From: Hormiphora californensis
Lineage: Eukaryota > Animalia > Ctenophora
DNA length: 64,000 nucleotides
Direction of reading: 5' to 3'
Assembly: GCA_020137815.1 (NCBI GenBank)
Contig: CM035361.1
Span: 1-64,000 of the forward strand
The notes under the pieces were generated by a model. That model had not been told where the DNA came from. It searched no databases and saw nothing but the letters and a program-made list of their open reading frames with translations. A program made the position numbers and the translations under genes. This document shows positions 34,025-49,222 of this stretch, piece by piece (the first letter of the stretch is position 1; every line of letters starts with the position of its first letter).

Positions 34025-34258
34025 CTACTCAAGAGGAACTCAATGAAGCTATCTCTTCTCTGAAATCTAACAAAAGTGCCTCCCTTGATCTAATAAGGAA
34101 CGAAATGCTTAAAAATCTATCTAGTGATATGAACGCTCTAACTCTTAAGCATCTAAATGGCTGTCTCAGAACAGGTTGCTACCCATGGAATGCCTCAGTT
34201 ACAACCGTTCTACACAAAAAAGGTGACAAAGAGGATCCAGACAATTACCGTGCCATAA

Positions 34259-34512
34259 GGGGAAACTCTAACTGAATGGACGCGCAGTAATGGCAGCCCA
34301 TCAACTGTAAAAATCTAACTGATAATGGGAGCCATCACTCTGGGCGCGCCAGGATTTGCCACATTCTGCTCGTAAAAAAGGCCTTTACGTAGCGCGCGAT
34401 GACAAACACACGGACATTGTCGCGCGTTCTGTCCATCATTCCTTCCATCCAGTTAGATTTTTACGGTTGATGGGACGCCAGTACTGCGCGTCCATTCAAT
34501 TAGAGTTTCCCC
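34259..34512. mobile_element. Harbinger-type MITE (GGGGAAACTC family)
   Basis: TAA TSD; removal restores NYRAITLGS. Confidence 0.9.
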
Positions 34513-36009
34513 TAACACTCGGTAGCTGTCTTGGTAAGCTATTCTCATCATTATTGCTTAGTCGCCTCATATCATTCAGGGCGAAAGTTTGTCCAGATAC
34601 TAGCAACCAGCTAGGCTTTTGCAAAGGAGGACAAACTTCGGATCATCTCCTAGTTCTGAAGACCATATTGGACAAATATCTTAAGAAAAAGAAGGTCAAG
34701 GTGTACTCATGTTTTATCGACATGCGAAAAGCCTTTGACCGCGTCTGCAGGCAAGGCCTCCTAAAAAAGCTAGCGGACATGGGGGTCGGCGGTAACTTCT
34801 TTTCCTGTCACCAGAATATGTACGAGGGATCAACTACGTGCATAAGGCTGGCGGACAAACTGTCTGAGTCGTTCTGCGTCCTAATCGGCACCGAACAGGG
34901 GCACCCCTTATCCCCCGAACTATTTAAAATGTTTGTTCACGAGCTATCCCATCTTCTCAACGAAACACCAGGAACTTTCCCCCAACTTGACAACAAGCCA
35001 ACCAATAACCTGATGTGGGCGGACGACATTGTGGTCCTGGCTCTCAACAAGACTTCTTTACAGTCTCTTCTAGACACCCTGGGTCACTACACAAGGACGT
35101 GGGAACTTGAAGTTAATATTGACAAAACCCAGGTGTTAGTTTTTAACAAACAGGGCAGACTTCTACCGGAAAGCTATGGATTCAAGCTAAATAACAAATC
35201 CCTTCAACCAACTAAGCACTATTGCTATCTGGGCCTGATCTTCTCCGCAACAGGTTCCCTCAAACCAGCAATTGAAAACTTATCAACTAAAGGGAAACGT
35301 GCATGTCTAGTTCTCAAACGTACAATAAACTCACAGGCTCTCTCGGGCTGGAGTCTGATGAAGCTATTCGACCACCTAATTGCTCCCATCCTAACTTACG
35401 GAATACCGGTGTGGCTACCCACCACTCAAGCGGCAAGAGCGAGAACCAGAGGAGATCATCTAGACCATAAAGGATACTTCAAGAGACTATCTACCGATCA
35501 TTTTGAACGAGTACACCTTGGATTTCTCAAATGGGTACTGGGTGTGCACAGCAAAACAACCAACACGGCAGTGTACGGAGAAACGGGAAGAGCACCCCTA
35601 TCAATCTCGGTCCATCAGCAGTGCTCGAAATATTTCATTAGAGCCCTGTCAAAAGCATCAGATGACCAAGACTCATCTCTACTCGCCCTCGCCGTCCGTG
35701 AACAACGCACTCTCAACCTGGAGTGGTTTGACTTTTGGGACTCCACCCTAAGGATAGGCGGCAGAGACCAACTTGAACATCAACATGTTCACCACTGGGA
35801 CGCACTGCGCAGCACCCAATCCAAACTCAGTTTCTTCAACACGATTAAACAAGAGTATGGATACTCCTAATACCTGGATCTACGAAGACAAGACAGAACA
35901 CACGTCGCCAAACTGAGACTTAGTGCTCACGACCTCCTTATCGAAACAGGTCGTTACACGGGTGACCTGCGCACATGCCGTTACTGTGTTGACAGATCAA
36001 ACGCCGATA

Positions 36010-36299
36010 GGGGAAACTCTAACTGAATGGCATCCCATTAATGGGATCCCATCAACAGTAAAACTCTAACTGATAATGGACCACAGTGATGGTTCTTTCT
36101 CTGTATTCTCTCTGTAGGCAGTACATCTATGTACTGCCTACAGAGAGAATACAGAGAAAGAACTATAGGGCATGCCCGGGCACGGGCGTGCACACAGAGA
36201 GAATACAGAGAAAGAACCATCACTGTGGTCCATTATCAGTTAGAGTTTCACTGTTGATGGGATCCCATTAATGGGATGCCATTCAGTTAGAGTTTCCCC
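36010..36299. mobile_element. Harbinger-type MITE (GGGGAAACTC family)
   Basis: TIRs; flanks ATA/TTA; removal restores the reading frame. Confidence 0.9.
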
Positions 36300-36621
36300 T
36301 TACTCTCAACCAGCTACCTATGGCGGACCCTATCTTTGAGGATGAAACACACGCTCTATTTGACTGTCCCGAGTACGAGGAACTGAGAAAGAACACGCCA
36401 GAACTTCTCCAAATATCACTCAAATCCAAAAGCACATCACACATCTTCAATCCCGAACTGATCACACCACTCAACAAATTTCTGGCCGCATGTCGCACAC
36501 ATAGATCTGAAAGTCCTGGGCCCGGCTAACTGCCTCAGGGCGAAGAACCGGTTCCACTGATAAATCTTCATGTCCGGTGAAGAGTTGCAGCCCACGTTTA
36601 TCTAACTCTACCTGCATGCTT

Positions 36622-36972
36622 GGGTGTGTGTGTGAGTGTGCGTGTGTGTGTGTGTTCGTGTGTGTGTGTGTGTGTGTGTGTGCGTGTGTGGGCTTGACCG
36701 GTATGTACTGTGTTAGTTGGTGATTTTTTTTTTGTGCAATATTGCAGTCTCGTTAGAGTTTAGTGGGAGCGTTTTTTGGTGTTTTCGGGTGATTGTGAGT
36801 CCGAGTGGGCGCGTGTGCGTGTACGCGTGTGGGTGATTGTATGCGTGTGTGTTGTGTGTCCGTTTTTTGTGTGTGTGTGTGCGTGCGGGGGTGTGAGTGT
36901 GTGTGAGCGTGTGTGAGTGGGTGTGTGTGTGTGTGTGTGCGTGCGTCTGTGTGTGTGTGAGTGTGTGTGTGT
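36622..36972. repeat. GT-rich simple repeat in the LINE 3' region
   Basis: (gt)n runs. Confidence 0.85.
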
Positions 36973-37140
36973 ATATTCTTTTCTTCCTTTTTTTAGTCCG
37001 AACGAGGTGGTACAATTATTTATTAATTCTCACTGTTTTTTGTTCCATTTATTTTAAACTAAAAAAAAAACTAATGCTGTTCTCCTCCACTAAAGATGTG
37101 TTATAAATCTCACAATTTTATAATTTTAATGTTTGTATAG

Positions 37141-38420: not shown

Positions 38421-38881
38421 GTCTAGACACTCACACACACACAAGCGAACTATTGGGGCTAATTATAAAGTAGAGAGATAACGAATGCCAATGTCTTTCT
38501 TGTTTCTCTCTTGTGTTAATCTATACACACTCCCTATCCCTAAATTTCTTCTTCCTTAATCAACAGTGTGTTACACAGTACACACATACACACATAAGAA
38601 AGGATTTCACACCTTTTTTGAATGAATTCTTGTGTGTAATAAACTACACTTTTGGAGCGTGTGATATGAGATTTATCACCTCGGATGCCCGAATAGTAGA
38701 GTCGATAACTACATCGACCTCTCCCAATTGTTCCAGTTTTTGTCACATCTGTTTGGAGCCTCGACACGACCTCTAAACAGGTGTTACTTTTTCACAAACT
38801 GTTTTCATCTTGGTGTAATCAGCATTTGAAATGTTGCTGATCATAACAAAAACCTAACTATTTTTTTTCAACTTGGGGTAA

Positions 38882-39225
38882 TGGTGTAGTTATGCCTCCG
38901 ACATCATCGGGATACGCGTGTTGGTGTGTGTTTTATCTGTGCGTGTGTGTGTTAGTTGTCATAGAGACGGACCCTGTGCTGCGCGAGATTGTAATGAAAG
39001 CACAGCATTCAGCGCGCGGCGCATCACACGAGGTATGCGCCGCGCAGTTCTCACGATATTTTCTGAAATGGTCCGAGTTTTTGAAACCCGAGAAATTTGT
39101 CAGTTCCTTTTTTACCACTTTACATTCACGAAACCAAGATCCGTGTTTTAAACTTCGTCTCAATCTAACTGGTGTACCCGGCTGCGGCAGCGCCCCCCAT
39201 TACCCCAAGTACCATCCTTACACCA
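38882..39225 (+). repeat. 5' LTR
   Basis: Direct repeat of 47893-48235. Confidence 0.93.
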
Positions 39226-39227
39226 AC

Positions 39228-39240
39228 TGGTGGCAGAGGA
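39228..39240 (+). promoter_or_regulatory. Primer-binding site, probably for initiator tRNA-Met
   Basis: TGGTGGCAGAGGA 2 nt after the LTR; one G:U difference from the complement of the animal tRNAi-Met 3' end (TGGTAGCAGAGGA). Confidence 0.7.
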
Positions 39241-39253
39241 AACATCAGCCAAT

Positions 39254-40736
39254 ATGTACACCAGATCCATGCGAAGGCAGGGTATCCAAGAGCCATTGCC
39301 GAGGATTGAAAGGAGTTTGTCCTATGATTTAGCAATCAGACGACCGATATCCATCAGCTCCCGACTTTCTACTATCAGCATAAGATCAATCACAGATGAG
39401 AATCTTGTACCACGACCGGCTCCAGAGATTAGCCCCCAAGCGAGGAATGCCTCTATCGAGAGATGGCGCGAACAGAGTCAACCGTCCATCTACAGTCGTG
39501 ATCGTGTGGCACATCCCAGAGAAGTGTATCAGCAACGTCGACCAAGTAGCCCGGAACAGAGTCAACTGTCCATCAACAGTCGTGATCGTGTGACACATCC
39601 CAGAAGAGTGCGTCAGCAACCTCGACCAAGCAGTCCAGAACAGAGTCAAGCGTCCATCTACAGTCGTGATCGTGTGGCACATCCCAGAGGAGTGCGTCGT
39701 CGACATCGATCAAGCAGCCCGGAGTCCTCCACAGAGAGCGAAAGATCCTCCCGTTACTCTAAGAAGAAGCACAGGACCAGTAAGCCTAAGTACGAGGGAG
39801 GAAAGAAAAAGTTTGACATCTTTCTGCGCCGTTTTAGACGTTACGTGAACCAGAAAAAGAGAAGAAACGATCTACATGAAGTTCTCCTGGATTGCATACT
39901 CTGCGACGACAAGTTCAGAATGATTGAGAGACTCCAATTCTCCGAGGAGGAAAAGAAAGACGTCGATAAGCTGATTGAGTATGTCCGATTCGCCACCCAG
40001 ACTGAGAGGCTCGCCCCCGAGGCATGTAGGGTAGAACTTACAACTATCCGACAGGGGGAATATGAGGAATACAACGATTTCCTCGAAAGAATCAGAGAAC
40101 TCGCCGAAGAGGCTTACTCGGAAGCGGATCCTATAGTCAGGCAAGATAGGATGAATTACCAGATGCTAAACTCTCTGCAAGATGGCCTATTCGACAGAGG
40201 AGTGGCCAAGACCATCTCGAAGTGGCGTGACGAAAACCCCAGAATCGACTTTGAAAGTGTAGCAGCAGCGGCACACAAGAAGCTAGTAAAGAACAAGATA
40301 TTCTTGCCTGAGAGAAAGAATCAGAAGTCTCTAAACGTCTACGCTATAGGAACGGCTGAGAGCAGTTCTAAACCCAGTACTGGTGCAAGTGACATTCCCA
40401 ACTGCACATTTTGTGGGAAGAGAGGCCACACTATCAACGAGTGCTTCCGGAAACAAACCTGCCAGCTATGTAACGAGAAGGGTCATACTGGACCCCGCTG
40501 CAGAAAGTTTACGATTCAGAGAAGGCACCAGATACCCAACGGAGCAGGGCACAATACCAGAAATAGGCAGCAAGCAGAATCAGAAGAAGGACTTAACCTG
40601 TTGGAACTGCAATGAAGAGGGCCACGTCAAGAGATATTGTCCCAAGCCGATCAGTGACCAGACACCACAAGGGAAGCAGTTAAACGGCCAAGCGGTCGAG
40701 GCAGGAAGGCAAGCTCAGTTCCTCGGCCGCAAGTAG
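39254..40736 (+). CDS. gag: Gag with three CCHC knuckles; the third is in the +1 frame
   Basis: PKYEGG, RQGEYE..DFLERI, CTFCGKRGHTINEC, CQLCNEKGHTGPRC; CWNCNEEGHVKRYC in ORF 40383-40736. Confidence 0.85.
40679..40730 (+). promoter_or_regulatory. Probable -1 ribosomal frameshift signal (gag-pol)
   Basis: G TTA AAC, 6-nt spacer, stem gcggtcgagg/cctcggccgc; pol frame is -1 and open from 40658. Confidence 0.7.
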
Positions 40737-43700
40737 ATGCAGAGATCATGCCGCCGGGGGAGCGTGAAGGGGAGAAGAAGGTACGGGTGGCCGACCTCTC
40801 CATCCCGCCGGCACAGAAATCCTGGTATTCTCCTAACCAGGAACACGTGATACAGAATGATGACACTCAGACCACACCGATCTCAGGACAAGACCCTACT
40901 TGCCAGAAGGTGACCGTCCAGGATGACAAGTTGGTAAAGTGTACAGAACCAGCATCAAGACCGGATGAAACGGTTCCTAGTTCTGATCAAGAAAAGGAGA
41001 CACTGACGAAAAAGGCCACCCAGAAAAAGAAACGAGGCAAGAAAGTGAAGACACTCACCGCTGATGAAATCAAAAGATCGCAACAAGTTATTGTAGAGGG
41101 AGAGATTACACACTATAATGCGGCACCCTTCAGAGCCCGTTGTTTTCTAGACACAGGTTCACAGATTAACCTCATAAACTGGACCACAGTGTGTAAAATG
41201 GGACTCACTTCGAACGTCAACGAGACCATGCAGAATCTTCGTGATTTCGGAGGGAACTCCATACCGTGTAAGGGGACCATTATGGTGATGTTGAACATAG
41301 GAGGCCTATCCAAATGGCACTCTTTTGCCGTCTGTGAGGGATTGGACACAGACCTGTTGTTAGGAGATCCATTCTTCACAGGACAAGTTGTGATCGATTA
41401 TATAAACGGTGAGCTGAGAATCGAAGGAGCAGATCCAGTTCCGTTTCAACCAAGACCAACCAGTACAGACAAGGTGCACCAGATAAAGTACACAGAAACA
41501 ACATGTATACCACCACATACGATGGTATTTGTGTCGGGGTCCCTAGCAGAAACCCCTACAGGGTCTATTGGACTAATCTCTCCTGACCTAACCAGAGGAC
41601 AAAACGATGTCTATGTTGCAGAAGCTATCGCCGAGGCAAGTGATGAGAAAGTTGTTTTGAAAGTCCTCAACATGACAGGAAACGAAGTTGAGTTGAAGCA
41701 AGGAAGTAGAGCGGCAAAGTTTAGTCCCGTTCCTGATTACGATCCTCATGCCGGAATCAAGTGGGAAGACAGATGCGCCATTGGTTCTGAAGTACCCGAG
41801 AAGGAGAGATGGACCAAAGAAGAGCTCTTTGAGCGTTTGAGTGTAGATGTTGCCATAAGGAACCTGACCGATCTCCAAGCACACGAGTTGAAAGACATTT
41901 TGTGGGAGCATCGACACTGCTTTAGCTATGACGATTACGATTTGGGTTCCTGCACAATGTACACAGCTAAGATCAGGCTAAAAGAGGGTGCAGAGCCGCA
42001 GTGGACACCACCGTTCCCATGTCCATATAAACTGGAGGACGAAATGCAAAGGAATATTGATGAGATGGTACGTACAGGAGTAGTCGAAGTACTGCCAGAG
42101 CGATCTGACTGGAACTCTCCGACATTTCTCGTCAAAAAGAAGACTCCTCCTGGGCAGCCACAACGTTATCGAATCGTAGCGGATTTGAGGAACGTCAACA
42201 AGGTCTCTCTTCCATCCAACTTCCCACTGGCACATCTAGACCACGTACTAGACAAGATTGGAAAGGACACAATCTTTTCCTCTTTCGACTTGTCACGCGG
42301 CTATTGGCAGCTACCATACGATGAAGCTTCAAAGCAGATAACAGCATTTCTCTACAAAAACACCCAATATGCATACGCCAAAACTGTGATGGGACATCGA
42401 TCAAGTGGACCGTCATTTTGTGACATGATGTCCAGGCTCCTTGGATCGTTGCCGATAGAGCAAGTAGTCCAGTTTGTTGATGATCTACTTCTATCATCGT
42501 CGACTGTCAAAGATCATCTTGACCGACTACAAAGGCTCTTGTCTAGGCTGAAGAGTGCAAATTTGAAGGTTTCGCCAGATAAGTCTCAACTTCTACGACA
42601 AGCAGTGGACTTCGTCGGTGTTCGAGTCAGCGGAGGAGGTATCCAGATCACTGAAAGCAGAGTAGCCGATCTCCTCGCTCTACGAGAACCCCGATCCAGA
42701 AAGGAAATTCAGCAAGTGATGGGCGCTATGAACTATGTTCGCAAGTGGATACCTAACTACAGCGCCATTAGCAAACCCATACACGCAGCCTTGCGTGGAG
42801 GTAAAGATAAGAAGTTTCACTGGACTGAGAAATGCAAGGAGGCGTATGAGGAACTGAAACGACTAATTGCCAAAACCACTCAACTGGCAATACCGGATCC
42901 ATCTGACCCTTACAACTCCTATCAAGTTACGATTGACGCATCGATCCACGGTCTGGGTGCGTCTTTGTCCCAAGAACTTGACACTGCTGATGGAGGACGA
43001 GAACGAAGAATAGTCGCCTACTACAGCAAGGCAGTTCCAGAGTACAAGAAACCTAGGGGTCAAACAAGACTTGAGTTTGAAGCCATGTGTGCAGCGCTTG
43101 AACATTGGAAGATATACCTGTACAACACGAAGGAATTTGTTCTCATCACGGACTGCTTATCGCTAGTAAAAGCAGAAGGAACGCTCTTCACACATCCGGA
43201 CGCAGCTGTACTAAACAAGATCCAGAAACTTGCGGAGTTCAACTTTATCTTACGCCATGTGAATGGAGTAGATAACGAAGTTTGTGATTGGCTTTCAAGA
43301 TTCCCCTCCCCACCGATCTTCAGTGAGGCTCAAACCCAAACACCAGTGGAGCCAGATCTTCTGAAGATGCAGACGACAGATCCAGATCTTCCGAAGATGC
43401 AGACTGCAGCTCCAGATCTTCAAGAGATGCAGACGACAGATCCGGATCCTCCAAAGGTACAGAATAAAGATCCAGACCCCTCAAAGGTTCAGACGATCAC
43501 ATCAGTCCCTCTGGAGACTCAACAACACCAGGCTGTCATTGTCGATTTCTTACCGTGCAAAGAATCAAAGGGATTAGAGAGATTCCTGCAGCAGAAAGGG
43601 TTCAGTGTAAGAACCATAGTCGGCAGTACACAAGAAGGACCTAGTTGTGGATACATCGCAGCGAAGGTCGTGGCCAAGATGATCTCCACCCCAGATTGCT

Positions 43701-46273
43701 TCGATGAACGGGTGCAGTTTGATGATTGTACCTACAGTGGAGATCCAGAAGATGACATGGTGGTTACAGGTAACGCCGCCTTGGGCAAACCTAATGAACA
43801 TCATCAGGAACCATCTTTCCTTACTGCCGAGGAGTGTCTACAGTTGATATCGGTATACTTGAAGAAGTACCATTCCATAGACATCCCTGTCAACAGATTG
43901 TGCTCCCAGGCAAACGTCGAAGATGCCATCAGCTTATCCACCTTCAGGTTCAAGACCCTTGAACACGTCAAGAACCGAGATGGAAAGAAGTTCTTCATCG
44001 TCAATAGCTCAGATGACGGTGGCATCCATTGGTTTGCAGTGGCCTTAGGACAAATCATGCAGCAGAAAACAGAACCGTCAGAGGAACCGATCCAGGTAGC
44101 AGAACTAACAGATAACCAGAGTCGCATTTCTAGCGAGGTTATCGATGGAGTTACATCACCTGAAATGGAACCAAAGACTGCAGAATCGTACCAACCTCGT
44201 ACAGTTGGATATGACCCCACAAACTCCAGTGACACAGACTCAGAGACATCTTCGTCTGTCCAGGAAGACCGCAGCTCTAGCGATCTGGACGATAAAGACA
44301 GCAGTATGTCCCTGAGCAGCACGTCAGATACAGCATATTCGTCATGTGAAGAGTCAAAAGCCGTAGAGTACATCTTTGTAGTGAAGAGCACTCAGTATCC
44401 GGAAACAAGCTTCGTGACAGAGTTCGCTGATATCGAGAATGGAGAAGACATCTCATCACGTTCCGGTGAAAAGAGATTGGGAAGTTCAGACAAAGTCAAG
44501 GATGCGCATCCGGATGATAATATTGTTAGTCTGCTGAAGTCAGACTGTCTGAACAGAGGAGTATCAGACTCAACTGAAGACCACATTCACCCTTGTATTT
44601 GTGGAGAAGATGCTGTCCCTGAAGAAATTCTGGAAGTAGCGGCTATACATAACCTCGGGATTGATCACCCTGCGGGTAAGAGCTGGCCAGAATGGGAAGA
44701 GGCACAAGAGTCAGATGATATCCTGAAGATAGTAAGAACGTGGGTCAAAAAAGGTTCGAGAGGTGTGGTACAAGCTAACCGAGCTCCTCCCGATCTAGAT
44801 TCGTTGTGGAGACAGTTTCCATTGCTGCGAATAGAAGATGGTGTCCTGCAGAGACGCTGGAAAGACCTAAAGACAGAGGACATTTTGTGGCCAATTGTCA
44901 TTCCATGGAAGTACAGAGAAGAACTCATAACGAGAGCACATGAGGTCACAACAGGCCACGGAGGGATCCAAACAACCCTCAACAGCCTGCGACGACTATT
45001 CTATTGGCCGAGAATGGAATCACATGTCAAATCCACGGTACAAGCTTGTCTAGTTTGTGCAGCAGTCAATCAACCACGAAAGAAATACCAGGCTGACATG
45101 AGCGAATTTATTTGCCATGAGTTCAATGCAGTGTTGGTGATTGATCACATTGAACCGGAGAAGAAAGGAGCAACCAAGAACGGATTCTCTTCAATTCTAA
45201 CCATGACAGACAGTTTCAGTAATTACCTTGTTGCTGTCCCTACCGTTACTCAAACAAGCCTGGAAAACCGACAACTGATCGAGAAACACTGGATCAATCG
45301 ATTCGGATACCCACGTGAAATAGTGTGTGATCAACATCAGGGTTTCAAAGGTGCTATGTTCAAAGAATACTTTGAGGTGTACGCTGGTATCAAAGTAATT
45401 GCAGGTCAGCCCTATCTGGCTCGTAGCACTGGCCGAGCTGAATCCAGTAACAAACGAGTCGATGATATTCTACGGAAGATATTGTTTGTGGAGTACCCGC
45501 AAGACTGGGACGAGTTTCTGAGCGATGCAGTATTTGTCCTTAACAATTTGAAAAATAGAAGGACAGGTTACACTCCATTCCGACTTGTCCACGGGTTTGA
45601 GGCAAATATCCCAGAAACTATCCGGATGAAACAACTTGCCAGGACCAGAGTCCCGCAAGGAGCAAACATCCATGCCAAAGTACACGAGATGGCCAAGCAG
45701 AGGAAGGAGCTGATTTGGAAAGTACGCCAGAATGCTAACAGAGATTTCGGGTACGCCAGAAAACAGCACAACAAGAGACTCAACGACCCTGAGTTATCGA
45801 TAGGAGACCAGGTGATGATTCGAATTCCGTGTCCAGAGCACAAGTTCTCTCCTAAATACATTGGTCCAATCCAAATCAAAGAAGTTATCAGCCCCTACCT
45901 GTACCGTATCCATCACAACGGGAAAGACAAGGTCGTTGCTGTGTCCAAACTCAAATTGTTCAGACGCAACAGTGCTTCTCTTGATCCAGAACAAGACCCA
46001 GAGTCAAACAGTGCCGATGAATCACCTCCAGACACCATGTCAGTAGAACCCAGTGACGTGGATGAACCTGAACTGAACCAATCTGAGCAAGAAGAAGTGA
46101 GATCTGTTGAAGATAACCAAGAAGAAGTGAGATCCGTTGAAGATGAAGAACTGCAGCCCCAGATACCACCACCACAGCAAACAGATGACCGAGAGGAAAG
46201 ACTGGAACCCGAGTGGAGGGGACGATTACGCTCCACAGTAACCGGAGTGAAACGATTTGCAGCTCAGTTATAA
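40682..46273 (+). CDS. pol: Pol polyprotein: aspartic protease, dUTPase-like region, RT, RNase H, inserted cysteine-protease-like domain, integrase
   Basis: FLDTGS; WNSPTFLV, FDLSRGYWQ, FVDD; IDAS/LEF/ITDC/CDWLSR; H-H-C-C plus D-D-E; uninterrupted ORF (1841 aa from ATG 40748). Confidence 0.95.
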   Translation, partial: KRPSGRGRKASSVPRPQVDAEIMPPGEREGEKKVRVADLSIPPAQKSWYSPNQEHVIQNDDTQTTPISGQDPTCQKVTVQDDKLVKCTEPASRPDETVPSSDQEKETLTKKATQKKKRGKKVKTLTADEIKRSQQVIVEGEITHYNAAPFRARCFLDTGSQINLINWTTVCKMGLTSNVNETMQNLRDFGGNSIPCKGTIMVMLNIGGLSKWHSFAVCEGLDTDLLLGDPFFTGQVVIDYINGELRIEGADPVPFQPRPTSTDKVHQIKYTETTCIPPHTMVFVSGSLAETPTGSIGLISPDLTRGQNDVYVAEAIAEASDEKVVLKVLNMTGNEVELKQGSRAAKFSPVPDYDPHAGIKWEDRCAIGSEVPEKERWTKEELFERLSVDVAIRNLTDLQAHELKDILWEHRHCFSYDDYDLGSCTMYTAKIRLKEGAEPQWTPPFPCPYKLEDEMQRNIDEMVRTGVVEVLPERSDWNSPTFLVKKKTPPGQPQRYRIVADLRNVNKVSLPSNFPLAHLDHVLDKIGKDTIFSSFDLSRGYWQLPYDEASKQITAFLYKNTQYAYAKTVMGHRSSGPSFCDMMSRLLGSLPIEQVVQFVDDLLLSSSTVKDHLDRLQRLLSRLKSANLKVSPDKSQLLRQAVDFVGVRVSGGGIQITESRVADLLALREPRSRKEIQQVMGAMNYVRKWIPNYSAISKPIHAALRGGKDKKFHWTEKCKEAYEELKRLIAKTTQLAIPDPSDPYNSYQVTIDASIHGLGASLSQELDTADGGRERRIVAYYSKAVPEYKKPRGQTRLEFEAMCAALEHWKIYLYNTKEFVLITDCLSLVKAEGTLFTHPDAAVLNKIQKLAEFNFILRHVNGVDNEVCDWLSRFPSPPIFSEAQTQTPVEPDLLKMQTTDPDLPKMQTAAPDLQEMQTTDPDPPKVQNKDPDPSKVQTITSVPLETQQHQAVIVDFLPCKESKGLERFLQQKGFSVRTIVGSTQEGPSCGYIAAKVVAKMISTPDCFDERVQFDDCTYSGDPEDDMVVTGNAALGKPNEHHQEPSFLTAEECLQLISVYLKKYHSIDIPVNRLCSQANVEDAISLSTFRFKTLEHVKNRDGKKFFIVNSSDDGGIHWFAVALGQIMQQKTEPSEEPIQVAELTDNQSRISSEVIDGVTSPEMEPKTAESYQPRTVGYDPTNSSDTDSETSSSVQEDRSSSDLDDKDSSMSLSSTSDTAYSSCEESKAVEYIFVVKSTQYPETSFVTEFADIENGEDISSRSGEKRLGSSDKVKDAHPDDNIVSLLKSDCLNRGVSDSTEDHIHPCICGEDAVPEEILEVAAIHNLGIDHPAGKSWPEWEEAQESDDILKIVRTWVKKGSRGVVQANRAPPDLDSLWRQFPLLRIEDGVLQRRWKDLKTEDILWPIVIPWKYREELITRAHEVTTGHGGIQTTLNSLRRLFYWPRMESHVKSTVQACLVCAAVNQPRKKYQADMSEFICHEFNAVLVIDHIEPEKKGATKNGFSSILTMTDSFSNYLVAVPTVTQTSLENRQLIEKHWINRFGYPREIVCDQHQGFKGAMFKEYFEVYAGIKVIAGQPYLARSTGRAESSNKRVDDILRKILFVEYPQDWDEFLSDAVFVLNNLKNRRTGYTPFRLVHGFEANIPETIRMKQLARTRVPQGANIHAKVHEMAKQRKELIWKVRQNANRDFGYARKQHNKRLNDPELSIGDQVMIRIPCPEHKFSPKYIGPIQIKEVISPYLYRIHHNGKDKVVAVSKLKLFRRNSASLDPEQDPESNSADESPPDTMSVEPSDVDEPELNQSEQEEVRSVEDNQEEVRSVEDEELQPQIPPPQQTDDREERLEPEWRGRLRSTVTGVKRFAAQL

Positions 46274-46570
46274 CCGTTACCACTGACCTTGATCAAGCCC
46301 TATCTGATGTTATGTATAACATTTGCTGGCCAGCTGGATTTGTCTTGATATAGTCACCTGGCACCTGTTTTGGGGTCCTGAATTCCCCAGTACTGCCTGT
46401 CAACTAGCGGCGAATAACTTGCTGTCATTCCTGATTTCCCCTCTATTCCTCGTCCCAACACCACTGCTACTAGGGCTGAATATCTTCAACTCTCCATTGA
46501 GGACCATTTGCTCCAGAAAGCTAAGGTCTGAGAGAGACTCTCACGGCCTACCCTCTACATCCCCACTAAT

Positions 46571-47041
46571 AGTTGAGTGTACTCAACACCCCGTTAAAAT
46601 CTTGGATTTAAACTCATGTTTAAACTCCTGGATTTAAATTCCACAATCCCCAACCAGTTGAGAGTTCTCAACAACACACCACACTTCGCTTTGAATACAT
46701 AATTCACTAACAGTTGAGCTTTCTCAACACCCCATTTTGATCCTGAAATTCACCCCGCTAAAATCTTGGATTTCAGATCCCTGATTTAAATTCTAAAGTT
46801 CACTAGTTGAGCCTTCTCAACATCTCATTTTGATCCTGAAATTCACCCTGCAAAAATCCTGGATTTATAATCCTTGGTTTAAATTCTAAAATTCATCAGT
46901 TGAGTTTCCTCAACACCACATCGACACCTCCTCAACACCACATTTGGATCCGGTAATTCTCCCAAGTTCACCCATGTTCATTACGTTAAAATCCTCTTGG
47001 ATTTAAATATTTATACACACCCAAGTTGAGTATTCTCAACA
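46571..47041 (+). repeat. Array of six AGTTGAG-N4-CTCAACA hairpins in the Gypsy 3' UTR
   Basis: Stems start at 46572, 46657, 46713, 46806, 46899 and 47025. Confidence 0.9.
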
Positions 47042-47892
47042 CAACAACAACAACAGCACTATTGGCCTGTATCTGCTGATATATGCTTGGATGATCCAGA
47101 TACCGTTACTAGGCCGACACCTGATGAGGAGGTTAAATGTGCTACCCAACAATATGCCATAATACCAATCCGCGATACCGGTAAACAGTTCCTGAGAGCA
47201 GAGGTACTATTTTGGCTTCCTTGAGAGACCTGGTGAGGTGAAGAGGAGCAGTGATTTATTGTCGGAGATCAGTGGTGGACAGGGAGCAGTTGGTACTGGA
47301 GTGCGATGCCCCTGAGATACTAGCTCGAGGAGATGGAACATACTGGTATTTGGCCCAGTTGATTTGACATGTGTTTTAATACAGATTAACACAGACTCTA
47401 TGCGTGTGTATATCCACGTAGTGTAAACATTTTAATGACCCAGGTTTTTATCAATCCACGGGTATGTTCGAGTCCGGTTTTTAATATTTTAATCCCAGTA
47501 TTTTATAGTAATTTATTTTTACGGCTCATGGTGTGGTTTATCCTATTTCACACGTGTGTTTTTAACCATTTTTATATGTTTTTATCCCAGGAATTTTGTA
47601 GGAATTGAAGAATCACCCTGTATACAGTATTATTGCCTAATATCACATGTGTATCTTTTCATTTTCATTCATTTCCATCTCATACACCCCTGCGTAGACG
47701 TCATTTCCCTCAGTCACATTACGTGTCACCCTCCCACGTGTGTTTTTATACCCTTTATATCCTAGCCCGAGTTCTTCCTGAGTGTGTTCGTACAGTGATG
47801 GTGTCGTTATGGTTCACCCCCCCTGGGGCAGTGGCGGCCCCCCGATCATTCCATTGGAATTGGTCGGGGAGCCGAAATTGTACTTGGGTGGA

Positions 47893-48235
47893 TGGTGTAG
47901 TTATGCCTCCGACATCATCGGGATACGCGTGTTGGTGTGTGTTTTATCTGTGCGTGTGTGTGTTAGTTGTCATAGAGACGGACCCTGTGCTGCGCGAGAT
48001 TGTAATGAAAGCACAGCATTCAGCGCGCGGCGCATCACACGAGGTATGCGCCGCGCAGTTCTCACGATATTTTCTGAAATGGTCCGAGTTTTTGAAACCC
48101 GAGAAATTTGTCAGTTCCTTTTTTACCACTTTACATTCACGAAACCAAGATCCGTGTTTTAAACTTCGTCTCAATCTAACTGGTGTACCCGGCTGCGGCA
48201 GCGCCCCCATTACCCCACATACCATCCTTACACCA
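47893..48235 (+). repeat. 3' LTR
   Basis: Direct repeat of 38882-39225, followed by the GTAA TSD. Confidence 0.93.
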
Positions 48236-48618
48236 GTAAAACCATGGGTGTCAAAAGTTAGCTCTAGGTCCCCTGAGTAACCATCCGGAGACTCTAAGAG
48301 ATATTTCAAGCCGTTCTCCTGTAATCATTAATCCCGGTAGAGCACATATTTGAGTATGGACGTACGTGCAATTGCCTACAACCTCAACTTTAATGTATAA
48401 CGTTAATGTGCGTCTCTCTCTTTTCTCCCCCTTGAGAAAGAGTTATCTCGCGCGGCGCAACCGCACGTGCGGTTTTTCCAGAGAGAGTGAGAGACATACA
48501 ATAACATGTAAACAGCCTGCCAGCGCTCACGTACGTCCGCATTGTATTTTTTTCTCCACCGGGATTAATGATTACGGGAGAACGGCTTGAAATATCTCTT
48601 AGAGTCTCCGGATGGTTA

Positions 48619-48870
48619 GGGGAAACTCTAACTGAATGGCATCCCATTAATGGCGTCCCATCACGTCCCATCACTAATTGAATGGAAGGAATGATGGAAG
48701 AACGCGCGACCATGCTCGTGTGTTTGTCATCGCGCCCTACGTAAAAGCCTTTTTTTGGCAAAATTTGTGGCAAATCCTGACGCGCACAGAGTGATGACTC
48801 CCATTATCAGTTAGATTTTTACCAGTGATGGGACGCCATTACTGCGCGGGCATTCAGTTAGAGTTTCCCC
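48619..48870. mobile_element. Harbinger-type MITE (GGGGAAACTC family)
   Basis: TTA TSD; empty site visible in the opposite arm (~48271-48286). Confidence 0.9.
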
Positions 48871-49222
48871 TTACTCAGGGGACCTAGAGCTAACTTTTGA
48901 CACCCATGGTTTTTATTATTTACCCCAAGTTGAAAAAAAATAGTTAGGTTTTTGTTATGATCAGCAACATTTCAAATGCTGATTACACCAAGATGAAAAC
49001 AGTTTGTGAAAAAGTAACATCTGTTTAGAGGTCGTGTCGAGGCTCCAAACAGATGTGACAAAAACTGGAACAATTGTGAGAGGTCGATGTAGTTATCGAC
49101 TCTACTAGAAGTCTAGACGGTCCCAGAGAGATGTGGGAAGTAGCGATCCCACTATATCTTGCCAGTGCCTCAGCCCCATACCCCGCCAGTGATTAGCTAA
49201 ATTGAGCCTGCTCAATGTGTGT

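Follow-up and report, generated by a model that had tools for sequence, protein, structure and literature searches.

A putative papain-fold deconjugase domain between RNase H and integrase in the Pol of a Ty3/Gypsy retrotransposon from the ctenophore Hormiphora californensis

The first 64,000 nucleotides of contig CM035361.1 of Hormiphora californensis (GCA_020137815.1), which in their full length are the window referred to below, include a Ty3/Gypsy long terminal repeat (LTR) retrotransposon of 9.35 kb at positions 38882-48235. The question raised by this locus is what is encoded between the RNase H and the integrase (IN) of its pol gene, where a reading of the DNA alone had seen roughly 450 extra codons without a stop and, in their middle, an apparently circularly permuted cysteine protease of the adenain/Ulp1 type. 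The extra region is there, within a single frame of 1871 codons; residues 840-1415 of Pol have no Pfam match and, therefore, some 450-530 codons are without assignment between the two enzymes. On balance, we favour as its explanation a papain-fold domain with conserved Asp, Gln, Cys and His residues which likely acts as a deconjugase (isopeptidase) of ubiquitin or a ubiquitin-like protein (UBL) and travels with the integrase. We regard the domain as a real and probably active deubiquitinase/ULP-type module of a new family, while its designation as a permuted adenain is only partly supported.

Conserved residues and predicted structure

The motifs quoted in the sequence-only reading are all present, in frame and correctly positioned. 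They are AVIVDFLP, with the Asp codon at 43544-43546, LERFL, STQEGPSCGYIA, with the Gln codon at 43631-43633 and the Cys codon at 43646-43648, and FFIVNSSDDGGIHWFAVAL, with the His codon at 44027-44029. Further conserved codons are those of an Asn (44003-44005) and a Trp (44030-44032). The query used for comparison with other proteins was a 203-residue piece (P0003; window 43478-44086), in the numbering of which the residues of interest are Asp23, Gln52, Cys57, Asn176, Gly182, His184 and Trp185. In the alignment of P0003 with its homologues (A4; 25 rows), where conservation was counted over the rows having a residue at the column concerned, Asp23 (17/17), Cys57 (19/19), Asn176 (22/22), Gly182 (23/23) and Trp185 (22/22) are without exception, Gln52 is kept in 18 of 19 rows, and His184 in 21 of 22, the exception being a Tyr in P0013. 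The invariance that had been anticipated for the Asp/Gln/Cys/His set is thus nearly complete.

The AlphaFold2 model obtained with the 25 rows of A4 has a predicted local distance difference test score (pLDDT) of 90.7 and a predicted template modelling score of 0.86, in keeping with the separate globular domain that had been suspected, whereas the model from the single sequence was unusable (pLDDT 37.1). The N-terminal part of the model consists of a strand ending in the Asp (residues 16-23), a helix (28-39), a second strand (42-48) and the loop with the Gln and the Cys. These are followed by a helix which starts at the Cys (57-70), a helical lobe (94-166) and a strand (171-176), after which an 8-residue loop leads to the His-Trp pair that opens the last strand (185-193). 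A Cys at the N-terminus of a helix, a His on a beta-sheet and an oxyanion Gln preceding the Cys are the characteristics of the papain-like cysteine peptidase superfamily in the broad sense, and all three are seen in the secondary structure of the model.

The order of the residues along the chain, Asp...Gln-x4-Cys...His-Trp in A4, agrees with the order first proposed. It differs both from that of clan CE (His-Asp-Gln-Cys) and from that of canonical papain (Gln-Cys-His-Asn). In at least six homologues the protein stops 12-20 residues past the His, hence an acid cannot follow the His as it does in canonical papain-type enzymes, and the invariant Asp23 near the N-terminus is therefore the candidate for the third catalytic residue.

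In an exhaustive VIA fold search of 48,161 chains, 15 clan-CA cysteine peptidases were among the 50 matches listed: six OTU entries, cathepsin L, two staphopains, calotropain, M48, USP11, UfSP2, coronavirus PLP1 and a C39 peptidase. Papain-fold cysteine peptidases are thus enriched among the matches listed, with the OTU deubiquitinases leading, in support of the suggested cysteine-protease fold. Neither Josephin nor any structure of Ulp1, SENP or adenain is among these 50; since the aligners used were sequential, a permuted relative from clan CE would score low in such a comparison. The ESM Atlas matches, all with scores below 0.9 (C39 and IpaJ, with Josephin at rank 17), were taken as leads only.

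A family carried by transposons

A phmmer search of the full library with P0003 returned 24 proteins at E<=1e-3, five of them at E<=1e-10, the best with an E value of 1.1e-33 and 48% identity. One of the 24, P0017, was rejected as a low-complexity artefact. P0028 was added by a profile search and was the sole find among proteins of 682-2000 residues, while a word-indexed search with the domain against proteins of 1029-3275 residues gave no homologue, a scan of metagenome contigs with P0003 gave 121 pattern matches with no relative among them, and tblastn found no other copy of the domain in the window. The closest relative, P0004, bears a ctenophore label in EukProt.

Several relatives are recognizable as transposon proteins. 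P0004, P0154 and P0157, with matches to Helitron_like_N and PIF1, are Rep/helicase proteins of Helitrons, and P0008, P0155 and P0159 have PIF1 as a Pfam match. The domain is at the C-terminus in P0004 and P0008, while P0006 and P0009 open with an apparent helicase tail. P0028 and P0166 have a sub-threshold match to the DDE_1 transposase, of the pogo-like DDE type, and in P0014 and P0020 the domain directly follows a 2A-like DxEENPGP peptide (DVEENPGP and DIEENPGP, respectively). The domain is thus an accessory module of transposons, including Helitrons, DDE-type elements and 2A polyproteins. No reverse transcriptase or integrase was found in the 24 representatives, P0028 or the eight cluster members scanned, so that the Gypsy setting is unique among the relatives found, in libraries which are poor in eukaryotes. 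As judged by its sequence, the domain belongs to a previously undescribed family with neither a Pfam model nor a PDB relative.

Three of these proteins have features of their own. P0020, of 1781 residues, has no Pfam match whatever at E<=0.001. P0157, a member of the P0008 cluster, is a Helitron protein of 3292 residues with a GDSL lipase and a 2OG-Fe(II) oxygenase (AlkB-like) upstream of the Rep/helicase, and in P0010 a 2OG-Fe(II) oxygenase is likewise paired with the protease-like domain.

Relation to known papain-fold peptidases

The same acid...Cys...His order, with the acid on an N-terminal strand, is found in the OTU-like enzymes of Legionella (PDB: 7bu0, 6yk8; MEROPS C119), as described in PMC10318531. 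According to the same text, the strand which normally comes after the His is permuted in the OTU-like cluster, and may still bear the third catalytic residue (Ceg23, LotA). The OTU enzymes and the Gypsy domain are also alike in having a large helical lobe between the Cys and the His. However, PF02338 (OTU) matches none of the 24 family members at E<=10, and the family, unlike OTU, has a Gln conserved at the fifth position ahead of the Cys, together with the invariant His-Trp. A Gln before the Cys and a His-Trp are typical of Josephin, Ulp1 and papain, and not of OTU. Among 401 Pseudomonadota genomes, PF02338 was matched in none and PF02099 (Josephin) gave one sub-threshold match.

Josephin is characterized by the motifs QEGxxC and HWF, to which those of the Gypsy domain are similar, and by an Asn after the His. 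The family differs from it in that PF02099 matches 0/24 members and in that the homologues end just past the His strand, with no room for an acid after the His. A further likeness is in the setting, since Josephin domains following a 2A-like peptide have been reported for ORF2 proteins of long interspersed nuclear elements (LINEs; PMC13405545), and the domain of P0014 and P0020 has the same position. The herpesvirus tegument protease domain (VTD; C76) was ruled out. Its hallmark is an invariable Asp-x-His (PMC9741609), and the domain has instead Gly182-x-His184 with the Gly in 23 of 23 rows, therefore it is not a VTD; nor did a profile search of the PDB sequences, which are assumed to contain VTD entries, give a VTD match.

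The alternative that survives best is the one from which the analysis started, namely that the domain is specifically descended from a protease of clan CE (Ulp1/adenain) by a circular permutation with the cut in the hairpin of the His strand and the Asp strand, its function being that of a deSUMOylase, a deubiquitinase or a processing protease. We consider this descent doubtful. The features shared with Ulp1/SENP (C48) and adenain (C5) are a strand-loop-strand His motif VN...G.HW and, following one another, a strand ending in Asp, a helix, a strand and Gln-x(4-5)-Cys-Gly; in the model, the elements up to the Gln-x4-Cys-helix come in the same order as in C48 sequences (HYDS..., ...QQ.N.YDCG). 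The C48 set comprised ElaD, the positive example (PF02902 at 1.1e-32), and 14 loci from 8 of the 401 Pseudomonadota genomes, and was then enlarged by 120 Ulp1-family proteins. When the unaltered family alignment was compared by hhalign with the 14, and then the 134, bacterial C48 sequences, its residues 146-193 (VN...G.HW) fell on the C48 His motif (E value 0.002-0.003; score 27.7-28.6). The score of this match was reached by none of 60 column shuffles (maximum 17.7 vs 28.6), and the reversed alignment scored 13.4. A second, non-collinear match placed residues 28-59 (helix, strand, Gln..Cys) on the part of C48 downstream of its His, but it is not significant (E value 0.22-0.29; 7 of 60 shuffles reach 14.9).

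Other results argue against this descent. The hhalign probability is only 11-13%, and the C48 profile is narrow, comprising only rhizobial proteins and ElaD. Permuting the alignment columns, with the His segment moved to the front, gave one alignment of 82-83 columns but no rise in the score, and the improvement expected from the re-permuted comparison did not come about. PF02902 (Peptidase_C48) and PF00770 (Peptidase_C5) are without a match in the 24 members, even at E<=10. Moreover, the Asp...Cys...His order is already present in OTU-type enzymes, whose acid-bearing strand is itself permuted to the N-terminal side, and thus this order does not point specifically to adenain; CE enzymes, for their part, are treated in PMC10318531 as a group with a permuted Cys helix. 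The Gypsy domain also differs from the CE enzymes as such, in which the order is His-Asp-Gln-Cys instead of Asp-Gln-Cys-His, and no CE structure is among the fold matches listed. Of the circularly permuted adenain/Ulp1 first proposed, what stands is the weak, non-collinear match of the His motif to C48, while the match of the Gln/Cys part is not significant and the Pfam and fold searches gave no support. The likeness to Ulp1-type enzymes in a permuted order is real at the level of sequence motifs but too weak to call CE descent.

Proposed function and its alternatives

In the mechanism we propose for the favoured papain-fold deconjugase, the nucleophile would be Cys57, with which helix 57-70 begins, and Gln52 would form the oxyanion hole. 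The base would be His184, where the last strand starts, and it would be oriented by Asp23, the residue with which the first strand ends. The domain would act on the C-terminal tail of ubiquitin or of a ubiquitin-like modifier. What the element gains may be that its own proteins, e.g., integrase or capsid, are shielded from ubiquitin- or SUMO-dependent degradation or silencing, a role like that proposed for the domains of OTU, Ulp1, VTD and Josephin type which Ginger1, Helitron, Mutator and LINE elements carry (PMC2836005, PMC9741609, PMC13405545).

Several results weigh against this proposal. In all 24 members scanned, the Pfam protease families gave no match at E<=10, the PDB sequences gave no match at E<=10 with either phmmer or the family profile, and Foldseek found nothing at E<=1e-3 in PDB and BFVD. 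In addition, some papain-fold and CE enzymes are not proteases, being instead acetyltransferases, deamidases or transglutaminases. The variation among copies was also considered. Among the listed differences, 11 variant codons lie in the domain, 4 synonymous and 7 non-synonymous, and these give no clear sign of purifying selection, the counts being those of listed differences, beyond which there are 78 more. None of the 11 is at the Asp, Gln, Cys or His, and the variant in the codon of Asn176 is synonymous; in the linker, 5 of the 20 variant codons listed are synonymous. Counted in favour of the proposal are the homologues with their near-invariant residues, the model, the transposon setting of the relatives, the precedents from other elements, and the youth of the element together with the persistence of the domain, unchanged at these four residues in the variants listed, in copies that have diverged: DNA contigs of organism A have a high word depth over the region, including copies 87-88% alike which still cover the domain.

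An improbable alternative is a second polyprotein-processing protease acting in cis on Pol, for instance to release the integrase; adenain and the OTU-like proteases of RNA viruses work in this way. The domain does lie inside a polyprotein, with the Pro-rich repeats of 43352-43501 on one side and a long acidic linker on the other, and viral OTU-like enzymes have been reported which both process polyproteins and deubiquitinate (PMC3744425, PMC5695851). However, the element already has an aspartic protease region, most of the relatives are terminal domains of transposases for which no processing is needed, and no LxGG-type site was seen when the translation of the flanks was read.

Still less probable, in our view, is that the papain-fold domain has a chemistry other than that of a protease, i.e., that of an acetyltransferase, a deamidase or a transglutaminase, or that it is a catalytically idle binding module. 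Such activities exist in the papain-like superfamily and in clan CE (PMC10318531), and P0013 has a Tyr in place of the His; against this, nearly every member retains all four of Asp, Gln, Cys and His, and the best fold neighbours among the matches listed are deubiquitinases. A thioredoxin- or DsbA-like redox domain, suggested by the DsbA, glutaredoxin and thioredoxin entries in the top Foldseek rows of PDB and BFVD, is very improbable indeed, as it is contradicted by the scores of these same rows (E>=0.02, TM-score ~0.2 and a root-mean-square deviation of 11-15 A over the whole model) and the conserved Cys is not part of a CxxC, while Cys27 of the window copy lacks conservation among the homologues.

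Organization of the host element

The assignment of the element to Ty3/Gypsy is based on its two LTRs with TG...CA ends, a target-site duplication, a gag with CCHC motifs, and the pol order of protease (PR), reverse transcriptase (RT), RNase H and IN. Its parts, in window coordinates, are as follows.

38882-39225, + strand: 5' LTR with TG...CA ends; 344 bases align to 47893-48235
39152-40615, + strand: gag frame, ending at the TGA 40613-40615; contains two CCHC zinc knuckles and, at 39470-39723, 84-nt tandem repeats
40658-46273, + strand: pol open frame, PR-RT-RNase H-[extra region]-IN; 1871 codons, no stop
41135-41377, + strand: aspartic protease region with weak Pfam matches (gag-asp_proteas, E value 0.0049; Pol 160-240)
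42134-42628, + strand: reverse transcriptase, RVT_1 (Pfam E value 1.7e-20; Pol 493-657)
42821-43306, + strand: RNase H (RT_RNaseH_2, E value 2.5e-18; RT_RNaseH, E value 2.8e-13; Pfam models at Pol 722-839, to 43174)
43352-43501, + strand: Pro-rich linker of 30-nt (10-residue, PDLxKMQT-like) tandem repeats, four copies in register, directly before the domain
43523-44056, + strand: papain-fold cysteine protease-like domain, P0003 residues 16-193, as judged from homologues, alignment, model and fold search
44057-44902, + strand: acidic Ser-rich stretch, then the pre-integrase region; no Pfam match, composition read from the translation
44903-45913, + strand: integrase with H2C2 zinc finger, DDE core (rve) and SH3-like domain (Integrase_H2C2, E value 3.7e-15; rve, E value 8.3e-7, below the Pfam cut-off; SH3_Tf2-1, E value 0.0047)
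47893-48235, + strand: 3' LTR with TG...CA ends, paired with the 5' LTR

The two LTRs differ by 2 mismatches and 1 single-base indel and, because they are thus ~99% alike, the element is considered young. The 4-bp target-site duplication GTAA lies at 38878-38881, before the 5' LTR, and again at 48236-48239. The internal repeats of gag (39470-39723) are three 84-nt (28-residue) tandem units, 87-88% alike. Downstream of the gag stop there is a second TGA (40655-40657) in the gag frame, which is also that of pol, and a third CCHC knuckle (CWNC...C) can be read solely in a different frame (open reading frame 40350-40736; window 40350-40740). Owing to these stops and to the off-frame knuckle, a Gag-Pol product would call for two changes of frame, unless the gag of this copy has suffered an indel.

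In pol, the end of RNase H at ~43306 was taken from reading the sequence beyond the end of the Pfam model at 43174, and Integrase_H2C2 and rve correspond to Pol 1416-1472 and 1492-1586, respectively. The linker just upstream of the protease-like domain consists of four to five 30-nt units, and the number of repeats differs among copies, as 39 bases (43372 to 43412) are missing from one DNA contig of run X1. The ~215 codons at 44057-44700 are acidic, Ser-rich and without a family match, and here copies differ mostly by non-synonymous changes and small indels. Short contigs from oligo-dT metatranscriptomes (runs X7 and X9, from two aquatic/marine studies) match parts of 43352-44700 at >=99%; these are no more than a hint of transcription, as carry-over of DNA is possible, and the stretches not covered by a contig are uninformative.

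Elsewhere in the window, a short repeat is present in three copies (34258-34527, 36009-36314 and 48618-48885), with ends which are mutually reverse-complementary, so that it looks like a miniature inverted-repeat transposable element, and a long imperfect (TG)n-rich low-complexity tract occupies 36587-36995.

Significance

The principle of transposon-borne deconjugases is already known, and what is new here is a family without a profile and its host context inside a Gypsy Pol. Deconjugase domains of the OTU, Ulp1, VTD and Josephin types occur in several transposon classes, although their use to the element is still unsolved. OTU or Ulp1 domains are reported on Ginger1 (Gypsy-integrase-like) transposases, Helitrons and Mutator elements, with OTU as a passenger of Helitrons and Ginger1 and Ulp1 in Ginger1 and Mutator (PMC2836005); active VTD deubiquitinases are found in Helentrons (PMC9741609), and on LINE ORF2p, Josephin or OTU domains have been seen to follow 2A-like peptides (PMC13405545). 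We found no published description of a cysteine protease or deubiquitinase within a Ty3/Gypsy Pol, in a search whose coverage did not extend to Repbase Reports and most subscription journals.

The same module is now seen in DNA transposons and in one LTR retrotransposon. Since it lies in Pol directly upstream of the integrase, the segment from RNase H to IN is a concrete construct with which to ask whether such a domain serves integration, protein stability or escape from silencing, and the order of its residues has a bearing on the permutations that link the papain fold in its canonical, OTU-like and CE forms. Our most far-reaching interpretation is a tentative one. The domain may represent an undescribed family of papain-fold isopeptidases of ubiquitin and UBLs, in which Asp-Gln-Cys-His would be a third rotation of the core, between Gln-Cys-His-Asn and the His-Asp-Gln-Cys of clan CE. 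Such a module would hop between classes of transposons (Helitrons, pogo-like DDE elements and 2A polyproteins) and here, in a retrotransposon Pol and beside the integrase, it might free the pre-integration complex, or the silencing machinery of the host, of ubiquitin or SUMO.

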